Positions 1 to 13,560 of a stretch of 13,560 nt of DNA are shown here, piece after piece. The translations under genes and the position numbers were made by a program. Source of the DNA: a virus. Lineage: Duplodnaviria; Heunggongvirae; Uroviricota; Caudoviricetes. Location: the IMG/VR virus record IMGVR_UViG_3300021354_000005, positions 1-13,560 of that record; one strand, 5' to 3'. Below the pieces are notes generated by a model, which saw only the letters and a list, made by a program, of their open reading frames with translations, did not search any database and was not told the DNA's origin. How positions within the stretch are numbered: the stretch's first letter is position 1; each line of letters starts with the position of its first letter.

Positions 1-2190
1 AACTTCTTGTAATTGAACTTGTAAATCTCTAGCATTATCTGTAGTATCTCTTAAATCACTTTTAAGTTTCTTATCTTCTTCAGATAAATCTCCTTGGAAT
101 AAGAATTTAAGTTCTGTATCTAGATTAGTATAAATAGATATAGTCTTTTGAGCATTATTAAACTCTCTACTCATATCATTTAACTCCTTCTCACTGAATG
201 ACTTAGGATCTTTACCTTTAAATTTATCCTCATACTTCTGTATCATATTCTCTAGCTGTCTGTTTAACACTTTAGCTTGAGTTAATAAAGGACCAAGGTC
301 ACCTCTCATTTGTAACTGTCTGATACTCTTAAATAAAATATTCAATTGATCATTCTTACTAAGTCTTTCTGAAGGAGTTATGCCTTTCTTAGCAAGTCTT
401 TCATATTCACTATTAAGTTTAATTAATAAAGCATCAATCTTTTTATTACCAGTAGTTTCTTCTTTAAGACCTAATGGAATCAAATAGTCTTTATTAATGT
501 TTTCAACATTAACATCTCCTATCTCAACACTTAATAATTTAGGTATTTCCTTAGTAGTAAGATTCATACTTGAGTATTGAGCTCTAATAGGAATCATTCT
601 TGTTTGGTCAAAGTTTTTTGCACTAACTCCATATCCAGCTTCAAGAATAAGCTTATATTGAGTCATTTGTTTTCTCCAAGATTGTATATAGTATGGAGGT
701 AAATCTTTATTCTTAGTAATATCAATATCTATAAACTTCCAGTCAAGTATATTTACTTTTCCTTCAGGAGTGATTGCTAAGAAATCTATAGTACCAGCTA
801 CATTTCTTTTAGCATCGTACACTGTCACCTCAGACATAAACTTAGTTCCCTTAGGAAATGTGTTTAATCTTTGCTCTAAGTTATTCTTAAGTGTATCATA
901 AAAGTCTCTGCTCTCAGGGTTTAATTGAGATGTATAGTTTGAATCATCTAATGGCTCATCTCTTAAATTACCATCTTTATCTACAAATGTACCAAAAGCA
1001 TTTTCAATATCAGCATGTCCTTTTGTACCATTAGCTGCTTTATCCTCATCAACTAATGCTTTATATTCAGACTTATTTAATTCATTAGCTTTAAATAAAT
1101 CATAATTAGAAGCTTTTACAAGCTCAGTAACTCTTTTAGTTTTTTTATCATTTACATAATAACCATCATCTCTTTTATCTATCTTAGTTGCACCATCTAT
1201 AATCTTCTTATATATCTCATCTTGAGATGTTCTCTGTAAATATACATTGTTCTCAGCTTCTCTAATATCTTGAGCTGTACCAATAGCTTCTCCAGACATC
1301 ACCTTAAGAGCTGCTTGGTCCATACCAGATTTAACAAATAGACTTTTGATAGCGTTAATTATCTTCTCCCACCAGCTTTCCACCTTAGCTAAGTTCTCAG
1401 GTATTTCTGTCTTACCCTCAGCTTTTTGAATGATAGTTTCAGCTAGCACCTTAGCAATAGCTTCTTCTTTTAACTTAATAACATCAGGTTTACCTTCCTT
1501 AGTTTGATAGTTCTTATCTCCAGCATATGTCTTAAATACATTATTAAGCATAGCATAGCTATTAATCTCCTTTAACAATTGATTGTATAAAGCTGGATTG
1601 GTTTGTTTAATAATGGCCACAGCAAAGTGCATAGCTTCCTCAGGAAGTACACTAGCCTCTTTACCCTCAACAACCTGTACTAATTTCTGCATGATTACAG
1701 CAGCACCATTAGCATCTTGCTTAACACCATTAACAACAATAGCTTGTAATGTTTTAATATCAACATCAATTCTTTTTAAGAAATCTTTGATTGCTGATAT
1801 TGTTTGAGGAGAAGCAGTAGATGAAGGAACTTCTTCTTTTTGAAAAAACTCACCTCTTTGGTCTTCTGTATATCCACCTCTTTCTTTATCAGCTTCTACT
1901 AATAGATTAGCTTCATCTCTTAACTTATTCTCATAATGAGTAAGATATTGTTGTGTTAGATCTTCTGAAGGATCAATATAATAATGAGTTTTACTAACTA
2001 CACTAGGAGTGATAACATCTTCATTAAAGCTTTTGTTAACCTTTCTAGCAGATTCAGCAGCTTCTCTAGCATCAGTGATTTCAAGAGTGTCTCTTTGATC
2101 AAGAGCCTCTTTAAATCCACCATAGCTTAAAGCATCTTTTTTAGCTTTATCAATAATGTCATACTTAATATCTACTAAACATTTACTCAT
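1..2190 (-). CDS. Large virion/ejected protein (3'-partial, 730 aa visible) with degenerate zincin-like domain and PD-(D/E)xK nuclease domain; crAss-like RNAP-associated protein
   Basis: Hand translation from ATG at 2190-2188 gives MSKCLVDIKYDIIDKAKKDALSYGGFKEALDQ...DNARDLQVQLQEV with no stop in 730 codons up to position 1. Codon usage matches the upstream giant gene. Motifs: LPEEAMHFAV (EEAMH at 1627-1641), KEEAIAKVLA, WWEKIINAIKSLF, GTKGH, SEV..AGTIDF..ILDWK, QMTQY. Absent from the ORF track, presumably because it has no stop inside the window. Confidence 0.92.
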   Translation of the reverse strand, partial: MSKCLVDIKYDIIDKAKKDALSYGGFKEALDQRDTLEITDAREAAESARKVNKSFNEDVITPSVVSKTHYYIDPSEDLTQQYLTHYENKLRDEANLLVEADKERGGYTEDQRGEFFQKEEVPSSTASPQTISAIKDFLKRIDVDIKTLQAIVVNGVKQDANGAAVIMQKLVQVVEGKEASVLPEEAMHFAVAIIKQTNPALYNQLLKEINSYAMLNNVFKTYAGDKNYQTKEGKPDVIKLKEEAIAKVLAETIIQKAEGKTEIPENLAKVESWWEKIINAIKSLFVKSGMDQAALKVMSGEAIGTAQDIREAENNVYLQRTSQDEIYKKIIDGATKIDKRDDGYYVNDKKTKRVTELVKASNYDLFKANELNKSEYKALVDEDKAANGTKGHADIENAFGTFVDKDGNLRDEPLDDSNYTSQLNPESRDFYDTLKNNLEQRLNTFPKGTKFMSEVTVYDAKRNVAGTIDFLAITPEGKVNILDWKFIDIDITKNKDLPPYYIQSWRKQMTQYKLILEAGYGVSAKNFDQTRMIPIRAQYSSMNLTTKEIPKLLSVEIGDVNVENINKDYLIPLGLKEETTGNKKIDALLIKLNSEYERLAKKGITPSERLSKNDQLNILFKSIRQLQMRGDLGPLLTQAKVLNRQLENMIQKYEDKFKGKDPKSFSEKELNDMSREFNNAQKTISIYTNLDTELKFLFQGDLSEEDKKLKSDLRDTTDNARDLQVQLQEV
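600..1170 (-). other. PD-(D/E)xK (RecB/AddB-like) nuclease domain within gene 2
   Basis: Ordered motifs: KRVTEL, GTKGH (His 1015-1017), Glu of MSEV (829-831), AGTIDF (Asp 784-786), ILDWK (Asp 742-744, Lys 736-738), QMTQY (655-669). Order and spacing match RecB-family PD-(D/E)xK nucleases. Boundaries approximate. Confidence 0.85.
1300..1790 (-). other. Zincin-like metallopeptidase fold, degenerate motif EEAMH, in gene 2
   Basis: Beta-strand-like segment (DANGAAVIMQKLVQVVEG), helix LPEEAMHFAVAII, third-ligand-type helix KEEAIAKVLAE (1453-1467) about 55 aa later, then amphipathic WWEKIINAIKSLF. This is the layout of phage HExxH...ExxA zincin domains with the first His replaced by Glu. Confidence 0.65.
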
Positions 2191-2192
2191 TA
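2188..2192 (-). promoter_or_regulatory. TAATG stop/start overlap (translational coupling) between gene 1 and gene 2
   Basis: The minus strand reads ...TGT GCA TAA TG AGT AAA TGT. Gene 1 TAA (2192-2190) shares one base with gene 2 ATG (2190-2188). No properly spaced Shine-Dalgarno; A at -3, consistent with Bacteroidota-style initiation. Confidence 0.85.
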
Positions 2193-5100
2193 TGCACAGT
2201 TATTTTGGTTATCATCCTCAATTGCTGGTAATCCTTCAGGAGCTATTTCCTTTCCTCTAGTTTGTGAAGGTAAGTTTTCTTCTTCAGTTTTTGGTCTAAA
2301 ATACTCAATAATATTTTCATCAGGGATTTCTTTTTCAACTTCGATAGTACCATTATTGAATACAGACTTTCTAGCATCTGTGTACATCTCTGTAGCATAC
2401 TGGCCATCTCCCCAAAGGTTGATAGCTTTATAAATCACCTTAGTACCAATTTCTAAAGGAACTTTTTGAAAGCCCATTACATCATTCAAAGTTTTATCTC
2501 CAGCAGCTTTTCTTTGGTTATATTCAGCACGTGATATTACTTTATTATCAACAATATCAATTCTTTCCTTTTCATTATAAATCACTCTAGGAACTAATAT
2601 ATAATCAGAACTTACATCAAAGAAGTTGTTAAATCTATCAAGTACTAATACATTTCTAGCTCCTACATTAGATAATCCTTCCATTACTGGAAACTCATCA
2701 AATTGAATAGCAGTAGTATATTCTCCTCCTACATTAAAGAAATTTGGTATTAGTGTACTCACTTTCTTAAATACATTCTCATCATTCCAGTTGTTTCTTT
2801 CAAATGCTCCTTTACTAAAGTTATCTGCATTTAAATCAGAGCTAACTGAATCAATTGCTGGTTTAACCTTATTAGCATAATCTTCAATAGGAATAATATT
2901 TTTAATAGAGATAGCTGATTGATAGGTTCCTTGAAGGATAGCTACATCAATAATTCTATTGTATAAACCATTTGTAGCTGGATTATCTCTAAGCTCTCTC
3001 ATCATACCAGTGTACAAGTTCTCATCAAAAGCATCTTTAAGATTAGCTTTTAATTTAATACTAGTAGCACCTCCTATTCTATCAGATGATACAGCTACTA
3101 AGTTATTAAGAATCTCCATTTCAGGATGAGCTTTTCTTGCCTTAGCTAATTCGCTAGCAACAGAAGTCTCAGGGTTAATTAATAACTCATTGATTCTATC
3201 ATTCAATCCTGTTTTAGTTTGAGTGATGTAATCAACAAAAGATGACTTAATCTTTACAGCTATTTTATCAAAATCATCAGCACCTAAATATTCATCTTGT
3301 ATATACTTATCTAACACCTTATTAGTGATAACTGAGTAGTCTAATTGATCAAGTTTTAATATAGATCCTAAAGAGTTTATAGACGCTTGAGTTAACTCAG
3401 CTTGCTTACCTATGTGTGAATTCTTTAATATGTCTTTTGCAGATGTAAATATATTTGAATCTTCAGCCACATCAGTCCTCAACATCTTCTTATTCATAGC
3501 TTCAGTACTCTTGAACCTAGTGGTATCATAGTTAGTAGCTTGTGTAAGTTTAACTAAGTATTGAGCCATCTTATTATATTTCAAGAACTCAGCCAATATC
3601 TTTTGTTGTTCTACATTATCAATTGTCTTTTTCTCTGAATAGTAGGTTTGAATATTAGTAGCAAGATTCTTAAGCTCTATTTTTGCAGCTCCTACCTTCT
3701 TAACATCAGCAGGGAACATACCACGAATATAGTCTAAATTCTTTTTGCTGTATATAGATTTAGAATCAATACTATCTAGATATTTTAAGTATTCTTTAAT
3801 AATAGGTTGATTCATAAATAAAGCACTAGTCTTTAAAGGAGTTCCTATTCTTGTTAAGAACATGAATGTGTTTACAGCAAGATTACTATTAATTATCTTA
3901 AGGATGTATGGATTCTTAGCTACATCCACAAATGATGTAATGAATCCAGATAGGTTATCAGAAATGTATTTATTAGCCTTATCTTTAATTCCAGATAAAG
4001 AGATTCTTTCCTTACCATCAACTGTCATCTTATTATGAGGAAGAGCTATTTGACCATTACCTAATATCTTCTTCTCATATGCAGATAATGAAGCAAGCTT
4101 AACAGGATCAAGATAGGTTTGAACTTTTTGAGCTAATGAATGGTTTGTAATATTTACAGCACCAATACCAACCCACTTCTTAGCAATTATAAACGCATGT
4201 CTCAATGCTGTTAAATAATTACCATCAAGCAATCTGTTCTTCACCTTAGTCTCATCTATACCCATAAGCTTATCTAATTGCTTAGATACATCTTCTAATC
4301 CACCATCAGATACAGGATTAACTAATCTATCATAGTTCTCAGGAAGAGTTAATAACTTCTCAACACTATCAAAGTATTCATTCTCAAGGGATTGCTTATA
4401 TAATCTATCTGCTAATTTACCATAATCATCTTCTGTAGCAGCTACTGTTCTTTCATTAATATCAAATATACTTTCAAGGTCTTCTTTTAATATGAACTTC
4501 TTAATAGCTTCTTTAGCTTTATCACCATATCCAAAGAAAGGAACTTGCTTTAACTGACCTTTAGAATTGATGTATGTATTCTTTAAATACATATTTAACT
4601 TATCTATATCAAAATCAGATCCAGCTATTTTGGTAATTTCAGAAGGTACCACCACTGTAGCTCCCATGAACTGTGGTAAGAATCCTTTGATTTTAAATAC
4701 CATTATAGAACTTAAAGCCTGTGTAGGAATACGGAAACCTATACCCTTAAGAATTGATTCATTCTCAGGCTTGTTTAAATATGCTAATAATTCTTCATCT
4801 GATTTAAATCCAGCTTTCTTAAACTGATCTTTAAATTGATGAGGAACTAATATTTCCATATATGGATTCTCTTTACTATAAGACTTAAGACTACCATCTG
4901 TAAATACCTTCTTACCATTAATTATAGTAACTCCTCTTTTTTCTCCAGACTTTTCCCATAATGTCACAGCAGTTTGCACTGCAGATAAACCATTCATTTT
5001 AGGAGAGATGAGAGCTTTGTTTACCATAGAGTAAAGAATACTTCTAACTTGTTCATATTCAGGAGTAGCTTCAAATGGAACCACCCATTGACCATTCTCA

Positions 5101-8100
5101 TCAAGACGTAATGTATCTTTAATATTATCAGATGAATCTCTCTTTAACATTTCTTGTTCAAGAGCTTCAGCTGTAGCTTTTCTATCTACAATATTATATC
5201 CATCTCCAAGATCTTCAATACCTAATCTATCTAATAACTGTGTATAAGCTTCTACATGTAATCCATCTAATGCATCATTATGACGTTTATATTCTATACC
5301 AGCTTTTTCACTTACAGGAGCACCATTTTCAAATATATCTATAGTAGCTATCTTAGTAGTTTGAGAACCACGTGTTTGTGCTTTAGGCTTTTCATAACTA
5401 TTCTCCACTTGAAGACCATAGGTTTTCCAAGCTACAGAAACATTATTATTAAATGGTTCTGTATTAAAACTACCATCTGTATTATATAAACTATACTTTC
5501 CTTCAGATCCTTCCTTTCTACCAGATTCAAATACAACATAACCTTTCTCTTCCTCAAACATCTTAATATATAAATTTGCTAAGTTAGTTCCTTCAATAGC
5601 TTTATAATATAAAGGCATTTGAGAGAACTTATCTAACACCATATCAAATTGGTTTTTACCATATTTGTTACCAGATACAATAGGTTTTAATACATCTACA
5701 ACATATTCAGGCTCAGGAGTTTTAAGAAGTTCTTCATCATGAGCTCTTAATTTCTCATTCTTTCCATAAGTCCATTCAACATCAGATCTTTTATCAAGAG
5801 CTTGTCTTGTGTAAGCCATTTGCCATTGATGCCATGATTCAGCAGTCTTATCATCCCATTGACCATTTCTAAGTTTAGCATCTCTCCATGTAGTATCTAT
5901 AATCATAGAAGCCGCATCAGCTTCATTTATATCACCATTAACTGTTATATCTTCAAGAGTAACAGTATCTATGAAAGATTTAAATAAATGATAGCCAGGC
6001 TCACCAGGTTTTAAATCAATATCACCAGCTTTATTATACTGCTGATTGTGGAATGTATTAAATTCAGGACTATCAAATGTTGTTCTTCTAGGAGATAAGA
6101 AAGACTTAATACGTTTAGTCTCATCTAGTTGACCCTTATCAATCTTAAATTGATATGGATCACCAAATAAAATTTTATGCAATTCTATATTATTAATAAT
6201 ATAGTTTGCTCTAGCAAATACCATAAGGTTATTCACTTGATCTTCTGATAATGAATTCTTATTTAAACCTTTAATTGCAGTTAAGCTATCATACTTAAAT
6301 GTACCATTAGGATTGTTAATAATCTTTTTATTATCCATCAATACCTTCTTAGTAGCTTCTGCGTTATCTTGTATAAAGGTTTTAACATCTTCATTGATAT
6401 TAGCAATATTATCATTGATATATGTATTAATATCTTCTTCTGTAGCCTTATTGATAATCAAGTTGTTAACATCAGATAAGGTCTTACCAGTAAGAATATC
6501 TTTAAAGAAACGTAATTCTGTAGCTCTAGGTTTTGTATTATCTAAATAGCTTCTATTGCTTTGTGCTAAAGCTATCTCATCTTTTAAATATCCTTTGAAT
6601 GTACTATAAATAGTATTCCAAGCAATTCCACCATCTACTTCATCATAAGAAATAAGATTACCTAAGTTAATCATAAACTCTCTAGAACTATCTGCAGGAA
6701 TGATTATATTGTAATTACCATTAATGTTTTGATTAATTTCTTGAGTAAATCTATTACCAAGAGTTAATCCTGTGGTACTTGTATTTATATTGTCTTTTTC
6801 ATTCTTTGTACCATCAATATATGAAATCTTCATTGACTTAATTCTCTTACCAGCAGCATTGAAGAATCTACTCCAAATAGTGCTATTTGTAGAGAATACA
6901 TCATTAAGCTCAGGTCTAGCTGATTTCAATTCCTCTATGTTATCAGATTCATTAAACTCATTCTCAAATAAAGAAGGTGCATTGTTATTATCAAATGCTT
7001 GTGTATTTTCACCTTCTACATTAGGGAATGTACTATCCTGTGAAGGATTTTCTACTTTAACATATAATTTAGAAAGAGTATTTAATGGACCATCAATAGC
7101 TAAAGTCTTAGAAGTAACGCTACCCAATTCTGTTGTTTTTCCAAAGAATGTATGAATAGCTCCAACAGCATCTGCAAACTCAGTTCTATCTTTATCAGTT
7201 AATTTCAAATATGAATCTAATCCAAATGTAACACCAAGCTTACCTAAGAAGTTAGACATTTGTATTGGTGTGCTGATAGGCACATCAGCAGCACTTACAG
7301 TTTTATAAGCTCCTTTAGAATATCTAACAAGAGAGCTCATATCAGTAGCTAAAGCTTTTAGATTGCTAATCCAATCATTCTTAGTTTGTTTAATTACACC
7401 AAACTGATTAGCTGGAGCTGTATAAACTTCTCCTTCATTATTTATATATTGAATTAATGCATCAGGTCTTTGCTTTGTAAAGGTTTGATAGAACTGTACA
7501 AACAATCTCCAATCATGTGGTTCAAACTTAGAAAAGTCAATAAACATTCCTTCTCTATCTCCTTTAAGACGAGTGAACAATCTTACATAATCAGAATCAG
7601 TTTTAGCTAAGTTAGTTAACTTATCTACCATCTTAGTTACACTAGTGGTATTTGCAAGCTTATCTATTACTGTAGCAAATGCTCTACTAGCATTTAAAAG
7701 TTTTAAGAAGTACTTATCAGTAGTAGCCACCTGAGGTAGAGATAGTGTAGAACTATTCTGTTGGTTAGTAGGAACAGTTTCTACTAATGTACCAACTACT
7801 ATTTTTACAGCAAATGGAGAGTTCTTCTTCCAATCTGTAGTAAATGCTTCAGCAGCGTACATTCTATTGTTTACATTCTCTGCATTGATATTCAATAAGT
7901 TATCCTCATCAAATTCAATTTTAAATGTACGTAAGAAATCTTTTGTTTTAACTACAAGATCAGACCAAGTCTTTTCTCCAACTACTTTATCTTCTTCTGC
8001 ATACTCAGCTTTAATAGCATTGAATATTTCTGGAGAGGTCAAATTAGCAATATCATATAATGATCTATTTGTACCAAACACCTTTGCAAAAAATCTAGCA

Positions 8101-11100
8101 GTGATATCTTTAACTGAATCATTAGTTTCCTTCTCAGTCAATCCTTCAACAGCTCTATATTCAATAAAGTCATTTTTAGCAGACTCAGAAAGTGTAGCTT
8201 CTTTAAACTTACCTGTATCAATAGCTTTAAATAACTCCTCTTTTCTAGAAGGTTTATTTACAAATTGCTTAACAAAGTTTATAATATCTCTGAAGAAGTT
8301 TAATATTCTTTCACCTATATTTCTAGCAGGAAGTTTACCAAGTCTGAAATCAGCAAAGTCATCAGCTATTCTTTCCTTAGCTTGTTGATCTGTAGCTTCT
8401 TCATATAATAACATTTTACCAGAAGCTCTATCTTTAAACTTACCAGACTTAGCTTTAAATTCATCAAGGATAGCTTGTTGATTTTCATTAGATAGGAAAC
8501 CTTTCCATACACCCTCAAATATCTCATGATACTCTGTACCTCTTTCACCACCTTTGTAAAACTTAGCTACACCATTTTCAAACACACCCCAAGCTTTCTC
8601 ACCATCATGTGTAGTAATAATATTATTTAATATTTCAAAAGGAATGTTAGGAACATTCTTAGCATGCCATTCTCTGAATAAATCAAGTTCTGCATCACTA
8701 ATTTTATCTACATCTCCCTTACCAAGTACTCTATATTGAGAACCTTTAGGAGGTTTAGATTTACTAAAGTCTGGTTTAACACCACCTTCTAAAGCAGCTA
8801 GTTCTGCATCATATTTAGCATTGATTGGTTTAAAAACATCAGCAACTTTATTTTTAAATGTAGAAGCATATTCTAAAACATCTTTTTTACCACCTGATGC
8901 TGCAAGATAATAAGCACTATAAAGATCAATTTTTAAATCTTTATTTCCTAATTGATCTAATGCAATTCCTTCTCTTATTGATTTATCTATTGCTCCAGTA
9001 GATAAATTAGCTATATTACTTCTTTCAACTTTTAAATACTTTTGACTTGCTTTATCCCATTGATAACTAACACCATCTATAATAAGTCTTTCATATGTTG
9101 CTAAATCTGTATTAGGATTTACTTCTTTAGCTGTAGTTGGTTGAGAAAGTAATGATAATAATTCATTTTGTCTTCTCTTTTCTATATCAGCTTTCTTAGC
9201 TTCTATATCAGAAACTACAGGAGCAGGAGCAGCCTCAACTACAGGAGTTTCAGCTTTAGTTTGAATCTCAGCAGCAATCCTAAGTTTAAGGAAATCCTTA
9301 ACAATATCAATATCACTTTTACTTGCATCAAATTTATCTACTGCTTTTAACGCATCAATAATTTGATTCATCTTACCCTTATCATTAGCTATATCTGTAA
9401 CTGTTTGATTATCAGATATTTTTATAAATGTATTATTATCAGCATCTTGTGTAGCTGTAAATAGTACAGGACCATTAGATAAATCATAAGTATTTTCTGT
9501 AGTACCATCTAATGTATATCCAGTAGGAGCAACTGGTGTTTCAAAAACAGGAGCAGCTGCAGGAGGTAATTGTTCAGGAAGTTCTAATCCTTCTAGAACA
9601 GCATATCTTTGTTTAAAGTTATTTGGAGCAATATCAGTCTTCTCAGCTACATTTGTAGATAGAGGAGTTTCATTAATAGATCTAGTTGTTCCATCAGGAT
9701 ATTTGTCTGCTAATAAATAAGTTTGATAGTTTGTCCACTTAGAAGTAACTAACTCATCCCCAACCATATGTGGTTCATAGAATGGTTCATTAAACTTCTT
9801 AGTAAGTGTATCATTATTTATATTTTGATACACACCCTTCAATTGGTCAACTATAACTTTTTCATTATCAGCAATCTTAGTTAAATCATACTTCTGATTA
9901 CCTAACTCAATATTCATTGTGTTAGTATTAATGAAGATTTGATTAGCACTATTAGCTCCTTTACTTCTCCAATATAATACATTCTGCAAATATGCAGAGT
10001 ATAACCTATTGATTTTGATTGGTTTACCAGCAGCTAATTGACTATTAACATCATCTGAGATTTTCTTTAACACCTCAAATACACCTTGTGATTCTTTGTT
10101 TGTAAAAGTTCTACCTCTTACAACTTGTAGTGTATCATTATATTGAATTAATGGATACCCAATAGGAACATTAACTTGCTTCCCTTTATGAAAAACAAAT
10201 CCTGTAGTGGATATCTTAACAAGTCCTTCTTGTGTAGATATAATATCACTAAGAACTAATGTCTTACCAATAGAGTTTCTTTGGTTTTGTACTGTTTGAG
10301 CAATACCGTTAGACACAGAAAAGTCATACACCTTATATCCAGGTGCATCAAATAACTCAGCTCTCTTAACTTTCCATCCAGCAGCTTTAGCTTCAGCTTC
10401 TGTTTTTTGGTCAGCTCTATATCTAGGAACAGGCTTACCATCTTTATCTGTAAACTTATAATATAAATCAGTGGTAGGCATAGTGTTAAACACCACTTTA
10501 TTCATATCCATAGTCTCACCCACCTTAGCCACACGTTTACCTTGTTCATCTACAAAATAAACATTATCACCATCTTGTTCCACATAAACAGCAACTACTA
10601 AACCATTATCTACATCTGTAGCATCAGCCACTTCAGATAGGGGTTTACCATATTGCATTTCTGCTAGTCCTGCCAATCCAAGAGAGTTCTCTTGATTAGG
10701 AGTAACTAGAATAGCTTTCATTCTAGCTCTATTAGAAAATCCACCAACATTATTCAAGAATGAAATAGCACGTGCCTGATGAGGTTTAGGAACAAAGTCA
10801 TCATCTTCAACTTGAGAAGTTGTTCCCTCAAATAACACTGAAGCATCTTTAAGCTTACCTTCAAATAGATTAACTATAACAGAAGAATCAACAGTGGCAA
10901 CATTACCAGAGTTATGTTCAATCTCTGCTTGATCTTTATTTATATCATCAGCAAACTTCTGTAGTTTCTCTTGATCAGTTTGAATCCTTTCATATCCTTC
11001 TAATTGACTAGGAATAATGTTTTGAGTATTACCATTAATATCTTCAACCTTGATTGTACCATCAGCATTATTCTTAATCACCTTCACCTTACCTAAATCA

Positions 11101-13560
11101 GCAGATGTTTTATTTATATCATCAGCAGCTGCTTGAGCAGCTTCTTTTGTATCATGAAAGGTAACATCTCCATTAGGAGCAGTCACTTGATATCTATCTT
11201 CATCTTGAACTTTATCCACCTTAGCTTTAGCAGCTTCAGGTAATTGATATTCTCTTCCCTCTTGAGCAGTTTCTGTCTCACCACCTTTGTTTGTAAAGTT
11301 AAAAGGACTATCTGGAATATCTGGTGTTTCATCTACTGCCAATGCTTCTTCTGCAGCAGCATCATAATTAGGACCATCTTGATAACCTATATAGTCTTTG
11401 AAATACTTTTCAAATCCTTCTTTATGTTCTTCAGTATTAGCTAGTTTCTTATATTTTTCTATCTCATTATCTAACTGCTTCTGTAACTGAACATTTTCAT
11501 TAATTAAGAAGTTACCTCTCATTTCCTGAGCATTTGCAGGAGATGCAACTTTTTCCATTACACCAAGAGAAGATGCTTCTAAGAAGTTATCAGCTATCTT
11601 ATTATTTAAAAAGATTTGTTTAGAAGTGTTTAAATACTTACTGAATTTAACATCTTCTATATAACTTCTTTTTAATCCATCGTATTTCTTATCATATTCT
11701 CCAAAATCAGATAGAGTTAATCTATCACTATCAAGACTGTTATAAATCTTTTTAAGTTCTTGAATCTTTTGAATTTGTTTATTATATATTTCTGAAGGAG
11801 TAAGTTCATTTCCTAATGAGGAAATATCGTTAGCTCTATTAGAATCATTTGCTAATTGTTCAGATTTTACCTTTAGTATATTATTTAAATGCTGTACACC
11901 ATTAGTATCATTAAGGAAGTTGTAAGCAAAACCTGCTAAACTCTTATCTTGAAGTTCTTGTACCTTTGTATGATTTTCAGCCTGTAATGCATCATACATA
12001 TCTTGTACATTCTTTGTAATACCAGCTAAAGATAAACCAGCATTTGCTAACTTTTGTTGATCAAATTGTACATTACCTTTTGCATCAGTAATCATTTTAC
12101 CATTACTATCTCTCTGAGCAAAGTCTGTTTCATAATATCTTCTATCAAGCTTTGCTTCAGTTATTTGATCATATACAGCTTTTCTTTGTGCAAGTTCTTT
12201 TGTAAATCTACCTGTTCTAATATCTTTACCATAACCAACTAATGATGTAAGTATACCTTGGATTGTACCCAAAGCAATATTGTTTTGACCATTAGGATCA
12301 TTAATGTTATCAACAAAATTCTGTAATATAGAACTTGTTTCACCAGTTTCTCCTAAGCCAGTTCCTGATATTATTCTACCTCTTTTATCTTTCTTTGCAC
12401 CATATTCTTCATCAAGTGTTCTACCAATAGCCACTTGCATACTTTCATTTTGACCATGTTCAAAACCTGTACCAACAGCTCTAATAGCTACATTGTACCA
12501 TTTAGGAGCTTGTTTCTCTAATGCATTAGCTAATACTTCTCCTGTTTCAGGATTAAACACTTTATTTAATAAAGAGTTTTTTACATTTCTCACTGAAGAG
12601 AATAACATTGGAAGTTCTATTAATTCATTTACAAATGATAAAGGAGCTGTATACCAGAATCCTTTTACAGCAGCCTGAGCAGCTCTCTCTTCAATTTGCT
12701 CATTTGTAAAATTATTTAATCCCTGAGCCTTTTGCTCTAGTAAAGATTGTTTAACACTTTCTTGTGCTTCTTTAGCATTTAATCCACTTTGTCCTACAAC
12801 ACCCATTCCAAATAACTCAGCAGCATTTAATGATCTCATTAAATTAGTAGTAGCAGCCTCTCCTGTTACTCCTCCCATTGCAGCAGCTTTATAAAGTCCT
12901 TTTGAGAATAGTTTTCCCATTGCACCAAACTCTTGAGGATTTGCCATAGCACTCTCTATAAGTTTAGTAGCTACACCTGTAGCTTTTACAGCACTTCCTG
13001 TTTCAGCTGCATCTGCTGCTAATGTACCAAATAATCCAAGTCCTCTTGTTTCAGCAAATCCTGGAGCAATTGTAGCTACAGTTAATGCAGCTCTATCTAT
13101 ACCATCACTTAACCACCAATCAGTAGTACTAAGTTTTTGCCAGATGTTTCCTTCTGTATATTGTTTTCCTTTGTATATTGGATTAGTATCTTCAACTCCT
13201 TTAGTAATTCCAGTACCTGCTTTAACTAAAAAGTTATCTGTAAGATTTGATATATCCCATGTAGCAAGTGCAGCAGGTGCACCAACAATAAACCCAGCTG
13301 TTTGTGTTAAATATCCAGCAGTCTTTGCTACTAAGTTAACAGCAGCATTCCCAATTCTATCCATTGAAGTTTGACCTTCATGATGTAAGTATTCATTATT
13401 TACATCTGGAAGAACAGTTTTATATCTATCAGAAAGCTCAGAAACATCATATGCATATTTAGATGAGTCTTTTGTAGAATTAGCTATCATTAAAGCTTGT
13501 TGTAAAGCTGTAAGTTTTGGTTTATCATCAGCACCAGGATTCCCTCCAATACCAGGAATA
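2190..13560 (-). CDS. Giant virion-packaged single-chain DNA-dependent RNA polymerase polyprotein (crAss-like, phi14:2 gp66-type core), 5'-partial, at least 3789 aa
   Basis: ORF track gives 3766 aa from Met 13490. The frame stays open for 23 more codons to the edge (IPGIGGNPGADDKPKLTALQQAL-M), so the true start is probably outside the window. Catalytic GSDFDIDK (DFDID 4602-4616) is preceded by RIPTQ (4719-4733). Further crAss-type motifs: FGDP..DETKR, DKFSQMPLY, FESGRKEG, YGLQVE, RGSQTTK, VGIGAV, VDVAK. Stop TAA at 2190-2192. Confidence 0.93.
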   Translation of the reverse strand, partial: IPGIGGNPGADDKPKLTALQQALMIANSTKDSSKYAYDVSELSDRYKTVLPDVNNEYLHHEGQTSMDRIGNAAVNLVAKTAGYLTQTAGFIVGAPAALATWDISNLTDNFLVKAGTGITKGVEDTNPIYKGKQYTEGNIWQKLSTTDWWLSDGIDRAALTVATIAPGFAETRGLGLFGTLAADAAETGSAVKATGVATKLIESAMANPQEFGAMGKLFSKGLYKAAAMGGVTGEAATTNLMRSLNAAELFGMGVVGQSGLNAKEAQESVKQSLLEQKAQGLNNFTNEQIEERAAQAAVKGFWYTAPLSFVNELIELPMLFSSVRNVKNSLLNKVFNPETGEVLANALEKQAPKWYNVAIRAVGTGFEHGQNESMQVAIGRTLDEEYGAKKDKRGRIISGTGLGETGETSSILQNFVDNINDPNGQNNIALGTIQGILTSLVGYGKDIRTGRFTKELAQRKAVYDQITEAKLDRRYYETDFAQRDSNGKMITDAKGNVQFDQQKLANAGLSLAGITKNVQDMYDALQAENHTKVQELQDKSLAGFAYNFLNDTNGVQHLNNILKVKSEQLANDSNRANDISSLGNELTPSEIYNKQIQKIQELKKIYNSLDSDRLTLSDFGEYDKKYDGLKRSYIEDVKFSKYLNTSKQIFLNNKIADNFLEASSLGVMEKVASPANAQEMRGNFLINENVQLQKQLDNEIEKYKKLANTEEHKEGFEKYFKDYIGYQDGPNYDAAAEEALAVDETPDIPDSPFNFTNKGGETETAQEGREYQLPEAAKAKVDKVQDEDRYQVTAPNGDVTFHDTKEAAQAAADDINKTSADLGKVKVIKNNADGTIKVEDINGNTQNIIPSQLEGYERIQTDQEKLQKFADDINKDQAEIEHNSGNVATVDSSVIVNLFEGKLKDASVLFEGTTSQVEDDDFVPKPHQARAISFLNNVGGFSNRARMKAILVTPNQENSLGLAGLAEMQYGKPLSEVADATDVDNGLVVAVYVEQDGDNVYFVDEQGKRVAKVGETMDMNKVVFNTMPTTDLYYKFTDKDGKPVPRYRADQKTEAEAKAAGWKVKRAELFDAPGYKVYDFSVSNGIAQTVQNQRNSIGKTLVLSDIISTQEGLVKISTTGFVFHKGKQVNVPIGYPLIQYNDTLQVVRGRTFTNKESQGVFEVLKKISDDVNSQLAAGKPIKINRLYSAYLQNVLYWRSKGANSANQIFINTNTMNIELGNQKYDLTKIADNEKVIVDQLKGVYQNINNDTLTKKFNEPFYEPHMVGDELVTSKWTNYQTYLLADKYPDGTTRSINETPLSTNVAEKTDIAPNNFKQRYAVLEGLELPEQLPPAAAPVFETPVAPTGYTLDGTTENTYDLSNGPVLFTATQDADNNTFIKISDNQTVTDIANDKGKMNQIIDALKAVDKFDASKSDIDIVKDFLKLRIAAEIQTKAETPVVEAAPAPVVSDIEAKKADIEKRRQNELLSLLSQPTTAKEVNPNTDLATYERLIIDGVSYQWDKASQKYLKVERSNIANLSTGAIDKSIREGIALDQLGNKDLKIDLYSAYYLAASGGKKDVLEYASTFKNKVADVFKPINAKYDAELAALEGGVKPDFSKSKPPKGSQYRVLGKGDVDKISDAELDLFREWHAKNVPNIPFEILNNIITTHDGEKAWGVFENGVAKFYKGGERGTEYHEIFEGVWKGFLSNENQQAILDEFKAKSGKFKDRASGKMLLYEEATDQQAKERIADDFADFRLGKLPARNIGERILNFFRDIINFVKQFVNKPSRKEELFKAIDTGKFKEATLSESAKNDFIEYRAVEGLTEKETNDSVKDITARFFAKVFGTNRSLYDIANLTSPEIFNAIKAEYAEEDKVVGEKTWSDLVVKTKDFLRTFKIEFDEDNLLNINAENVNNRMYAAEAFTTDWKKNSPFAVKIVVGTLVETVPTNQQNSSTLSLPQVATTDKYFLKLLNASRAFATVIDKLANTTSVTKMVDKLTNLAKTDSDYVRLFTRLKGDREGMFIDFSKFEPHDWRLFVQFYQTFTKQRPDALIQYINNEGEVYTAPANQFGVIKQTKNDWISNLKALATDMSSLVRYSKGAYKTVSAADVPISTPIQMSNFLGKLGVTFGLDSYLKLTDKDRTEFADAVGAIHTFFGKTTELGSVTSKTLAIDGPLNTLSKLYVKVENPSQDSTFPNVEGENTQAFDNNNAPSLFENEFNESDNIEELKSARPELNDVFSTNSTIWSRFFNAAGKRIKSMKISYIDGTKNEKDNINTSTTGLTLGNRFTQEINQNINGNYNIIIPADSSREFMINLGNLISYDEVDGGIAWNTIYSTFKGYLKDEIALAQSNRSYLDNTKPRATELRFFKDILTGKTLSDVNNLIINKATEEDINTYINDNIANINEDVKTFIQDNAEATKKVLMDNKKIINNPNGTFKYDSLTAIKGLNKNSLSEDQVNNLMVFARANYIINNIELHKILFGDPYQFKIDKGQLDETKRIKSFLSPRRTTFDSPEFNTFHNQQYNKAGDIDLKPGEPGYHLFKSFIDTVTLEDITVNGDINEADAASMIIDTTWRDAKLRNGQWDDKTAESWHQWQMAYTRQALDKRSDVEWTYGKNEKLRAHDEELLKTPEPEYVVDVLKPIVSGNKYGKNQFDMVLDKFSQMPLYYKAIEGTNLANLYIKMFEEEKGYVVFESGRKEGSEGKYSLYNTDGSFNTEPFNNNVSVAWKTYGLQVENSYEKPKAQTRGSQTTKIATIDIFENGAPVSEKAGIEYKRHNDALDGLHVEAYTQLLDRLGIEDLGDGYNIVDRKATAEALEQEMLKRDSSDNIKDTLRLDENGQWVVPFEATPEYEQVRSILYSMVNKALISPKMNGLSAVQTAVTLWEKSGEKRGVTIINGKKVFTDGSLKSYSKENPYMEILVPHQFKDQFKKAGFKSDEELLAYLNKPENESILKGIGFRIPTQALSSIMVFKIKGFLPQFMGATVVVPSEITKIAGSDFDIDKLNMYLKNTYINSKGQLKQVPFFGYGDKAKEAIKKFILKEDLESIFDINERTVAATEDDYGKLADRLYKQSLENEYFDSVEKLLTLPENYDRLVNPVSDGGLEDVSKQLDKLMGIDETKVKNRLLDGNYLTALRHAFIIAKKWVGIGAVNITNHSLAQKVQTYLDPVKLASLSAYEKKILGNGQIALPHNKMTVDGKERISLSGIKDKANKYISDNLSGFITSFVDVAKNPYILKIINSNLAVNTFMFLTRIGTPLKTSALFMNQPIIKEYLKYLDSIDSKSIYSKKNLDYIRGMFPADVKKVGAAKIELKNLATNIQTYYSEKKTIDNVEQQKILAEFLKYNKMAQYLVKLTQATNYDTTRFKSTEAMNKKMLRTDVAEDSNIFTSAKDILKNSHIGKQAELTQASINSLGSILKLDQLDYSVITNKVLDKYIQDEYLGADDFDKIAVKIKSSFVDYITQTKTGLNDRINELLINPETSVASELAKARKAHPEMEILNNLVAVSSDRIGGATSIKLKANLKDAFDENLYTGMMRELRDNPATNGLYNRIIDVAILQGTYQSAISIKNIIPIEDYANKVKPAIDSVSSDLNADNFSKGAFERNNWNDENVFKKVSTLIPNFFNVGGEYTTAIQFDEFPVMEGLSNVGARNVLVLDRFNNFFDVSSDYILVPRVIYNEKERIDIVDNKVISRAEYNQRKAAGDKTLNDVMGFQKVPLEIGTKVIYKAINLWGDGQYATEMYTDARKSVFNNGTIEVEKEIPDENIIEYFRPKTEEENLPSQTRGKEIAPEGLPAIEDDNQNNCA
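2300..7830 (-). other. Two-barrel (double-psi beta-barrel) RNA polymerase region of gene 1
   Basis: Beta-like part: FGDP (6156-6167), EADAAS (near 5905-5925), DKFSQMPLY (near 5607-5633), FESGRKEG (near 5507-5531), YGLQVE (near 5403-5420), RGSQTTK (near 5352-5373). Beta'-like part: RIPTQ (4719-4733), DFDID (4602-4616), bridge-helix-like VDVAK (3915-3929). About 1850 aa, similar in size to the known single-chain crAss-like RNAP. Boundaries approximate. Confidence 0.88.
8250..8700 (-). other. Zincin-like metallopeptidase fold, degenerate motif HEIFE, in gene 1
   Basis: AWGVFENGVAKFY strands, then GTEYHEIFEGVW (HEIFE 8514-8528, track aa 1655-1659), then KERIADDFADF helix, then amphipathic ILNFFRDIINFVKQF. 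Zincin layout with the second His replaced by Glu. Confidence 0.7.
8787..9209 (-). other. Helix-flanked insertion cassette: DIEAKKADIEKRRQNEL - 111 aa - INAKYDAELAALE
   Basis: Flank 1 at 9159-9209, flank 2 at 8787-8825, insert 8826-9158. It follows a Pro/Ala linker (AETPVVEAAPAPVVS) and precedes a Pro/Lys linker (GGVKPDFSKSKPPKG). I recall this flank pair from giant phage virion proteins; not verified here. Confidence 0.55.
10935..11127. repeat. Perfect 19-bp direct repeat (TTTATTTATATCATCAGCA) at 10935-10953 and 11109-11127
   Basis: Read directly from the sequence. The copies are 174 bp (58 codons) apart and each encodes ADDINK in gene 1. Confidence 0.9.
12228..13360 (-). other. Gly/Ala-rich hydrophobic helical region of gene 1 (putative membrane-inserting ejection domain)
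   Basis: Several low-charge small-residue segments: AGYLTQTAGFIVGAPAALATW, AALTVATIAPGF, GLGLFGTLAA, AAELFGMGVVG, GFWYTAPLSFV, NIALGTIQGILTSLVGYG. Also a PIY...NIWQKLSTTDWW aromatic motif. Composition is typical of phage internal ejection proteins. Function inferred. Confidence 0.5.

Follow-up and report, generated by a model that had tools for sequence, protein, structure and literature searches.

Facing terminal cysteines at the split points of the crassvirus RNA polymerase cargo module and a possible end-to-end link between its proteins

The RNA polymerase module and its gene junction

The stretch of DNA analysed here, referred to as the window, spans bases 1-13560 of the 89,898-bp IMG/VR record IMGVR_UViG_3300021354_000005 (completeness estimate 78%) and carries two very large minus-strand genes, gene 1 and gene 2, that face each other with one cysteine each across their junction. 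Gene 1, defined by its open reading frame (ORF) and translation, runs over 13712..2190 (2190..13560 in the window) and encodes 3840 amino acids (aa); its start at 13712 lies 152 bases, or 51 codons, past the window edge, and 3789 residues are inside the window. Gene 2 (1..2190, minus strand), recognised by its ORF and by homology as a gp49-like cargo protein, is represented by its first 730 codons and is incomplete at base 1 because the window starts at the contig end. A full-length copy of gene 2, P0135, is 99% identical and has 1639 aa. A circular continuation of gene 2 at the opposite contig end was rejected, the open ORF there being 83 aa and far too short.

The two genes overlap in the sequence TAATG (2188..2192, minus strand). 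Gene 1 ends with ...NQNNCA followed by the stop codon at 2190-2192, and the ATG of gene 2 at 2188-2190 opens a protein that starts MSKC. Translation and homolog conservation identify the two cysteines as Cys3839, the penultimate residue of gene 1 (TGT, 2196..2198, minus strand), and Cys4 of gene 2 (TGT, 2179..2181, minus strand), with 14 nucleotides (nt) between the two codons around TAATG. An earlier note on this DNA had pointed to exactly one cysteine per gene, at facing ends, and had proposed that the two join the proteins in the virion. Its coordinates and counts were confirmed.

For naming the parts of the module we follow the nomenclature of crAss001, with A for the gp47-like, B for the gp50-like (virion RNA polymerase, RNAP) and C for the gp49-like part; L-numbers denote loci or genomes compared and P-numbers protein homologs. 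Gene identities were drawn from tblastn and blastp; local phmmer returned less than blastp. The polymerase core of gene 1 (aa 2594-3305; 3798..5933, minus strand) was located by tblastn and blastp to crAss001 gp50 and the phi14:2 RNAP, with aa 2594-3320 matching the phi14:2 RNAP (locus tag gp077) at E 4.7e-27 and crAss001 gp50 at E 2e-25, and the tblastn search matched 114 crAss-like records. In the alignment of this core (A1) the FRIPTQ and SDFDxDK blocks are invariant, including DFDID (motif match; aa 3033-3037; 4602..4616, minus strand). DFDxD is given as the catalytic-site motif of crAss-like virion RNAPs in the preprint by Drobysheva et al. (bioRxiv 10.1101/2020.03.07.982082). Toward the other end of gene 1, aa 114-567 match phi14:2 gp078, which is encoded just upstream of the polymerase in that phage (E 2.4e-9), aa 1682-1762 match the zincin region of crAss001 gp47 (E 3.4e-6), and aa 1701-2086 match the cr118_1 fusion protein (E 2.7e-14). 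Since the N-terminal half resembles the A part and the C-terminal half the B part, gene 1 is by homology an A+B fusion of the gp47-like RNAP-associated part and the gp50-like virion RNAP. A word-based search for homologs of the first 1800 aa of gene 1 returned fused forms only and no split gp47-like relatives; the split relatives used below were taken from curated genomes.

The gp47-like part is marked by HEIFE (aa 1729-1733; 8514..8528, minus strand), a degenerate form of the zincin motif HExxH that lines up with HEAFH in both crAss001 gp47 and the cr118_1 fusion protein and in which the second His is replaced by Glu. Among the long gene-1 homologs, 109 have HExxEGxW at this site and 3 have HExxH, and for this reason the protease activity proposed for the gp47-like part may be lost in the clade of gene 1.

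Gene 2 is, on the evidence of homology and position, the C part of the module, a gp49-like RNAP-associated cargo protein. Its homolog in L007 is collinear with crAss001 gp49 (E 9e-10 over aa 125-329 and 1e-6 over aa 980-1538), and it lies directly after the RNAP gene, in the order of the reference module. Pfam gave no match for gene 2, and neither Pfam nor PHROGs gave one for gene 1 or for three cargo-like proteins encoded upstream of it. The three RNAP-associated proteins have been detected in crAss001 virions (PMC10172136), and such proteins were also found in phi14:2 virions by Drobysheva et al., who had already noted split and fused forms of the module. Because gene 1 and gene 2 are homologous to these virion proteins of crAss001 and phi14:2, their products are probably RNA-polymerase cargo that is carried in the particle and injected.

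Cysteine depletion of gene 1 and gene 2

The 3840 aa of gene 1 include a single Cys, or 0.03%, which lies among the 3789 visible residues, and gene 2 has one in 730 visible residues, or 0.14%. Cys4 is also the only cysteine of the full-length copy P0135; the parts of both proteins that lie outside the window thus add none, a point on which the original proposal could have failed. Cys content is 0.044% in homologs of gene 1 and 0.064% in those of gene 2, and 1.03% over all ORFs of the record. From positional base composition, ~45 Cys codons would be expected in gene 1 and ~7 in gene 2, and TGY triplets in gene 1 number 1 in frame versus 36 and 260 in the two off-frames. The depletion extends over the block 22561..1, in which five large proteins have 2 Cys per 7275 aa in total; the upstream cargo-like proteins of 908, 946 and 851 aa have zero. 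Within this block, a GIY-YIG homing endonuclease gene on the same contig beyond the window (L002:16443-17060, minus strand) encodes 205 aa with 3 Cys; it lies between two of the Cys-free cargo-like genes that precede gene 1 (946 and 908 aa) and provides an internal control for their depletion.

Strong avoidance of cysteine had been expected by analogy with the virion RNA polymerase of coliphage N4, and that this protein lacks Cys is borne out by PMC11445570. Gene 1 and gene 2 do not reach the total absence seen in Schitoviridae, in that one conserved terminal Cys stands at each junction-facing end. If two cysteines were placed at random, the probability that both would fall within 5 residues of the facing ends is ~9e-6. 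A second cysteine recurs in roughly half of the gene-1 homologs (P0027-P0122, L016-L095), ~890-1100 residues before the C-terminal end and just upstream of DFDID, and is missing from gene 1 of the window.

Conservation of the terminal cysteines

Conservation was surveyed in ~260 gene-1 homologs, 120 gene-2 homologs, 76 IMG/VR loci and 12 curated genomes from three families. All 120 of the gene-1 homologs listed (46-93% identity) have a Cys 0-5 residues from the C-terminal end, in tails of varied classes that include NNQNNCG, KLKECY, PNPCGQ, ILKSIC, EDPFTC and DTCVPF. For more distant relatives we used cluster representatives, the counts referring to the 150 matches listed of ~2340 RNAP-core cluster representatives: 133 of the 141 representatives listed (34-57% identity) have Cys in the last 0-5 residues, and the other 8 comprise 3 with Cys 6-13 residues from the end and 5 that are truncated ORFs or longer fusions. 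Alignment of the core identified 80 IMG/VR loci with 76 complete ORFs (26-54% core identity), of which 75 have a C-terminal Cys within 0-5 residues and the remaining one has it 13 residues from the end.

The N-terminal side is equally regular. Cys occurs at residue 3-5 in 118 of the 120 gene-2 homologs listed, as the sole Cys in 108, and both exceptions are N-truncated ORF calls. The gene following the RNAP gene begins with Cys at residue 3-6 in 74 of the 76 loci, and in the other 2 Cys-rich genes are inserted and the gp49-like gene beyond them still starts with Cys. The placement is also polar: none of 271 fused gene-1-like (AB) proteins has Cys in the first 8 residues and 265 have it in the last 6, while among 117 gene-2-like (C) proteins Cys occurs in the first 6 residues of 115 and is missing from the last 8 of all. 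The codons of these cysteines switch synonymously between TGT and TGC among relatives. The claim that the two terminal cysteines are unlikely to be there by chance is thus supported both by the random-placement probability and by their conservation in homologs.

Terminal cysteines in split and fused forms of the module

A Cys pair flanks every split point of the gp47|gp50|gp49 module, 0-5 residues (rarely up to 13) from the end on the C-terminal side and at residue 3-6 on the N-terminal side, and is gone where the parts are fused. In phi14:2, in which the module is split as A|B|C (1797, 2180 and 1421 aa), just 4 Cys occur in 5398 aa: one is the final residue of A, two are in B (residues 3 and 2179) and one is in C (residue 3). 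The same pattern of Cys at the A end, B start, B end and C start is found in crAss001, DAC15, IAS and cr116_1, where the A gene is on the opposite strand and the Cys pairs are kept. The A|BC form of Intestiviridae (LMMB, crAss002, cr3_1, cr271_1) carries its terminal Cys where A ends and where BC starts, and the end of BC has none. The AB|C form, to which the window belongs with cr108_1, cr118_1, cr10_1 and a large environmental clade of hundreds, has them at the AB end and the C start only. In the triple fusion ABC represented by P0392 (5544 aa), residues 3995-5535 align with gene 2 and the whole protein has zero Cys. With regard to the A|BC form, Met33-Ser-Cys of crAss002 gp33 (L012:16089-16190) matches the MSC start in LMMB, cr3_1 and cr271_1, and the annotated start of gp33 is probably 32 codons too early.

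Extra fissions follow the same rule. In L029, a 534-aa piece with Cys3 and a last-residue Cys is followed by a protein with Cys3 only. In L050, the C part is split into C1 (421 aa; Cys3 and Cys420) and C2 (1739 aa; Cys3) with a GIY-YIG endonuclease gene between them, while L040, 91% identical to L050 in the second piece, has an unsplit 2150-aa C protein with Cys3 only. Partner genes are also separated by inserted genes in L039, L050 and L093, and the Cys pair is kept in each. The positions of the cysteines are therefore nearly universally conserved and depend strictly on whether the module is split or fused at the point concerned; the tabulation of junction cysteines across Crassvirales that the earlier note had called for gave terminal Cys kept on both sides and tracking fission and fusion. 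The insertion in L050 (L050:15406-16080), compared with L040, is a GIY-YIG/NUMOD3 endonuclease gene that splits the gp49-like gene, and ~50 residues of the L040 protein (388-441) align to both L050 halves, which hints at a duplication at the insertion site.

These comparisons bear on a first alternative, that the two cysteines are chance survivors or a by-product of the TAATG stop/start overlap and its translational coupling. The 14-nt distance of the two codons around the overlap would fit such an origin. The random-placement probability of ~9e-6 argues against it, as do the retention of the cysteines in several hundred homologs with varied flanks, the synonymous variation of their codons, and the occurrence of pairs in non-adjacent and opposite-strand genes. 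This alternative is refuted by the comparative data, and an explanation through the overlap or coupled translation is excluded by the combination of TGT/TGC variation, separated or opposite-strand partners and extra fissions. Coupled translation had also been suggested as the means of supplying the two partners together; it is not needed, given the opposite-strand genes of crAss001, DAC15, IAS and cr116_1 and the separated genes of L039, L050 and L093. The data call for the C-terminal Cys to work as a pair with the N-terminal Cys of the module protein that follows, in place of a continuous chain.

Tail and head modules

Both cysteines lie in variable terminal segments. In alignment A2, the conserved fold of gene 1 stops ~45 residues before the end and is followed by a variable linker, which in some relatives contains whole inserted domains; the Cys column still stands at the very end and is nearly invariant. 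In gene 1 the variable tail after the last conserved domain has 35 aa (...PEGLPAIEDDNQNNCA; 2193..2297, minus strand). In alignment A3, the first ~110 residues of the gene-2 family are exchangeable classes in which the Cys is the sole invariant column, and the conserved domain begins near ...SPQTISAIKDFLKRI. The corresponding head module of gene 2, which holds Cys4, lies at 1861..2190 (minus strand). No second conserved Cys, His, Asp or Glu column was found near the terminal Cys in either alignment.

Tail and head classes pair one-to-one across the IMG/VR loci, and particular pair types recur at different split points. The C1|C2 pair of L050 (..KIKCD with MACKYTYNG) resembles the AB|C pair of L067 (..KKNCD with MACQYLYKG), and the C1|C2 pair of L029 (..EDPFTC with MKCDVRLN) resembles the AB|C pairs of L073 and L076. 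This class matching fits cognate docking elements. The terminal peptides were also co-folded, as had been suggested, as 260-aa pieces from the C-terminal end of gene 1 and the N-terminal end of gene 2. The score was 0.34 versus 0.00 for the best control, with at least 81% contact agreement between runs and a partner predicted local distance difference test (pLDDT) score of at least 79. Among 80 solved complexes, 58 reach the mark for co-folds, as do 2 of 110 mismatched pairs; at scores of 0.60 or below, 7 of the 80 solved complexes reach it and so do both passing mismatched pairs. The co-fold thus lends weak support and is not relied on here.

The alignments and the split/fused comparisons bear together on a second alternative, in which a shared metal ion (e.g. 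Zn, Fe or Cu) bound by the terminal cysteines joins the chains, either in the virion or once the polymerase has re-assembled. Pairing is demanded by the fission/fusion rule and the polarity, which leave its chemistry unspecified; thiolates at chain ends could be joined by a free amino or carboxylate group as additional ligands, and a metal bridge would be workable in a reducing or anoxic setting. It is harder to reconcile with a single conserved residue per terminus and no second Cys/His/Asp/Glu column. Two thiolates alone make a poor Zn site, and fixed geometry is at odds with the variable distance from the end (0-5, rarely 13, at the C-terminal end and 3-6 at the N-terminal end) and the many flank classes. 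We consider a metal bridge improbable. A structural metal site of the zinc hook, zinc ribbon or similar type was rejected, as each terminus offers one Cys in place of 3-4 ligands at fixed spacing.

A proposed end-to-end link

Of the end-to-end linking that the earlier note had put forward, the pairing of the two termini is upheld by the comparative test, and from it we infer a physical link, its chemistry (disulfide, metal or other) and a role in packaging and ejection. That some physical tail-to-head link exists between the products of gene 1 and gene 2 is probable. More specifically, we propose, with a probability of roughly 0.6, that cognate docking of tail and head is locked by an inter-chain disulfide in the virion and gives a redox-labile chain for ordered ejection. 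A conserved Cys is present on each partner, as an inter-chain disulfide pair requires, and inter-protein disulfides are known from the tail and portal vertex of crAss001 virions (PMC10172136). A disulfide would be the simplest chemistry because each end has one conserved ligand with no other ligand column, because distance from the end and flanks vary, and because of the crAss001 precedent.

Gene 1 and gene 2 are purged of Cys, as other ejected phage proteins are. In the course of events that we propose, the tail of gene 1 and the head of gene 2, both variable, would form a cognate pair whose non-covalent docking during assembly leads to 1:1 co-packaging; docking would have to precede the bond because assembly takes place in the reducing cytoplasm. 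Once the particle is in an oxidising milieu, the thiols would oxidise and make the two proteins one linear chain, comparable to the single polyprotein of some relatives. The unfolded chain would then thread its way through the portal and tail in N-to-C order, which would be possible because the link is at the extreme chain ends, and the reducing cytoplasm of the host would cut the link and free the subunits. The earlier note had also named the junctions upstream of gene 1 and downstream of gene 2 for checking. The chain appears to take in gene 1 and gene 2 and nothing beyond them, as the upstream proteins of 908, 946 and 851 aa are Cys-free and so are the C-terminal ends of gene-2 homologs. 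The chain of the window phage would accordingly have two links, gene 1 and gene 2; the junction that is bridged by a second Cys pair in other crassviruses is already fused within gene 1.

Two further alternatives accept that the terminal cysteines have a function and assign it elsewhere. In the first, they would bond to other partners, either anchoring the cargo to a structural protein (portal, capsid interior or tail) or forming homotypic tail-tail or head-head dimers. The structural proteins of crAss001 are Cys-rich with many inter-protein disulfides, each cargo protein is believed to be packed in several copies (PMC10172136), and unpaired C-terminal Cys occur in other cargo-block proteins of Intestiviridae, all of which would agree with such bonding. 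It leaves unexplained the joint gain of C- and N-terminal Cys at splits and their joint loss at fusions, the Cys-free outer chain ends and the matching of tail and head classes, and we regard it as unlikely, though the least so of the alternatives weighed here. In the second, the cysteines would have no linking role and would act as a redox or thiol trigger, a site of modification or processing (e.g. by a peptidase), or a protection of the end. Peptidase-like genes do lie between partners in some loci (an Rce1-like CAAX protease in L045 and M28-like ORFs in L039 and L093), gp47-like proteins have a zincin motif, and cleavage has been proposed for the fused proteins of relatives (Drobysheva preprint). 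However, the Cys is not fixed at a CaaX position, peptidase genes are an uncommon feature, present in 3 of 76 loci, gene 1 has a degenerate zincin motif (HEIFE), and a function at a single end predicts neither strict pairing at splits nor loss on fusion. A non-linking role therefore seems about as improbable as a metal bridge.

Three specific forms of processing or anchoring were rejected. A split intein or trans-splicing is not accommodated by cysteines 0-5 and 3-6 residues from the ends, which leave no space for intein domains, and Pfam found no match in gene 1 or gene 2. A bacterial lipoprotein lipobox does not fit a Cys at residue 3-6 directly after the Met and followed by polar sequence (MSKCLVDIKYD), with no signal peptide. 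A CaaX box is excluded by the end of gene 1 in C-A and by homologs with Cys 0-5 from the end, not exactly four.

Several points weigh against a disulfide-locked chain. Capsid assembly takes place in the reducing cytoplasm, and the habitats of many hosts are anoxic, which makes both the timing and the occurrence of thiol oxidation uncertain. No covalent link between cargo proteins is mentioned in Bayfield 2023 (PMC10172136) or in the Drobysheva 2020 preprint. Presence in the virion and intact termini are assumed from relatives, and terminal processing in the particle would remove the Cys. Tail and head modules are adjacent in most genomes, so that genetic linkage, and not co-adaptation, could account for their class matching. 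The co-fold gives weak support and yielded no interface contacts. In a few relatives (cr10_1, L039) the tail Cys is 10-13 residues from the end. Finally, cargo-block proteins of Intestiviridae outside the RNAP module have unpaired C-terminal Cys (the LMMB 861-aa protein, crAss002 gp30 and the cr3_1 299-aa protein), and a terminal Cys is therefore not always accompanied by an obvious N-terminal partner.

The disulfide-locked chain can be placed in a wider scheme, which we advance more tentatively and at somewhat less than even odds. Crassviruses would rebuild a polyprotein from separate cargo proteins by means of portable, class-specific cognate connectors and one terminal disulfide, with 1:1 packing, ordered ejection as a single thread and reduction in the cytoplasm. 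Because the connectors would be portable, module genes could be split without loss of function, for example by the insertion of a homing endonuclease as in L050.

Relation to known systems

The closest known systems are the homologous modules of phi14:2 (g067-g066-g065, locus tags gp078-gp077-gp076, g066 being the crystallised virion RNAP) and crAss001 (gp47-gp50-gp49), which share with gene 1 and gene 2 the DFDID motif, the A-B-C order, the extreme Cys depletion and the terminal Cys pattern. The window differs from them in having A and B as one 3840-aa chain, with a single junction pair, and in a zincin site of HExxE rather than HExxH. The ejected proteins of Schitoviridae (N4 gp50; DEV gp71, gp72 and gp73) are likewise giant virion RNAPs and partners that are nearly Cys-free. 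Their Cys suppression has been explained by passage through the oxidising periplasm, with 0.00075% Cys in gp71 homologs and the few in gp72 homologs put down to errors (PMC11445570). They differ from Crassvirales in having essentially no Cys, as opposed to one per junction-facing end, and in an unrelated RNAP fold (T7-like versus two-barrel in Crassvirales).

The virion disulfides of crAss001 (tail hub, ring proteins and the portal-vertex gp57 dimer) also join separately translated proteins. They differ from the proposed link in being visible in density, in lying away from chain termini and in stapling folded proteins that the particle retains; the proposed link would connect disordered ends of proteins destined to leave it. 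Polyproteins and fused crass cargo (P0392 and the p-crAssphage RNAP fusion protein) would be functionally equivalent to the proposed chain, and both states occur among close relatives; the fused forms rely on peptide bonds and proteolysis, whereas the chain would be joined post-translationally and released by reduction. Polypeptides are concatenated through residues at or near their ends in sortase-linked pili of Gram-positive bacteria and in disulfide-linked multimers of von Willebrand factor and mucin. Those polymers use other chemistry or enzymes, have a structural rather than a translocation role, and have no homology to gene 1 or gene 2.

A terminal Cys rule in crass cargo was not found described in the open-access full-text literature, and the cysteines of the cargo are not mentioned in the crAss001 structural atlas (PMC10172136) or the phi14:2 RNAP preprint. 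The RNAP cargo module of crassviruses and their virion disulfides are already known; a head-to-tail linkage would be a new mechanism if confirmed. The ejection of crassvirus cargo is listed as unresolved by the 2023 crAss001 atlas (PMC10172136) and a 2026 N4 paper, and the wider question is by what means podovirus-like phages load set amounts of very large internal proteins and pass them in order through a narrow tail. If real, a redox-labile tie would explain the equal copy numbers of the three polymerase-associated proteins, their ordered ejection, and the ease with which fused and split architectures replace each other in the most abundant human-gut phage order. It would also refine the rule of Cys avoidance, in that ejected proteins would avoid Cys except where it is used, and would provide natural small orthogonal connector peptides for protein engineering.

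Further observations on the module and its neighbours

Genes inserted between the partners vary in content. Cys-rich genes lie between the RNAP gene and the gp49-like gene at L039:14283-17666 and L093:15709-17554; an M28-peptidase-like ORF is common to both inserts, and that of L039 also encodes a 779-aa protein with intein and LAGLIDADG domains. At L045:13907-14362, a 151-aa ORF of the Rce1-like CAAX-protease family (Pfam E 2.4e-16) lies between a Cys-tailed RNAP gene and a Cys-headed gene, as a single case. Three curated genomes have interrupted RNAP genes (L098:12801-23666, L014:12954-24544 and L013:14630-23612). At the interruption cr116_1 has a LAGLIDADG endonuclease gene, cr108_1 a gap of 290 bp and IAS virus stretches of N, and the ORF ends annotated at these points probably do not correspond to real protein ends.

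Proteins at the start of the Intestiviridae cargo block (L010:3780-7279, L012:5394-7067, L097:4127-5026) end with a Cys in a basic tail (..RCGGHKR, ..KQSCR, ..FRCGGKKKIA, ..CGGRKRMKRK), with no N-terminal Cys partner visible. The gene after the gp49-like gene encodes a tail fibre with collagen repeats and an S74 chaperone domain (L007:11072-14104, L005:10948-13161, L029:21352-22407, L050:21392-22387). The only Cys of this fibre form an N-terminal cluster at residues 5, 10 and 18 or 7, 10 and 18, which may be a docking element or disulfide plug for the tail hub, by analogy with the N-termini of crAss001 fibres.

Gene 2 contains a PD-(D/E)XK-like exonuclease region (aa 330-526; 613..1203, minus strand) that matches phrog_298 'exonuclease' at E 9.4e-7, and thus a nuclease-like fold, including ...DFLAI...LDWKF..., appears to be present in a predicted ejected RNAP-associated protein. 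Many gene-1 homologs (P0039-P0055, P0063, P0080, P0107 and others) have accessory domains inserted before the Cys tail or elsewhere, among them YbiA/DUF1768 (PF08719), AlkB-like (PF13532) and helicase (PF13538, PF05970, PF13604) domains, and these enzymes would be expected to enter the host together with the polymerase.

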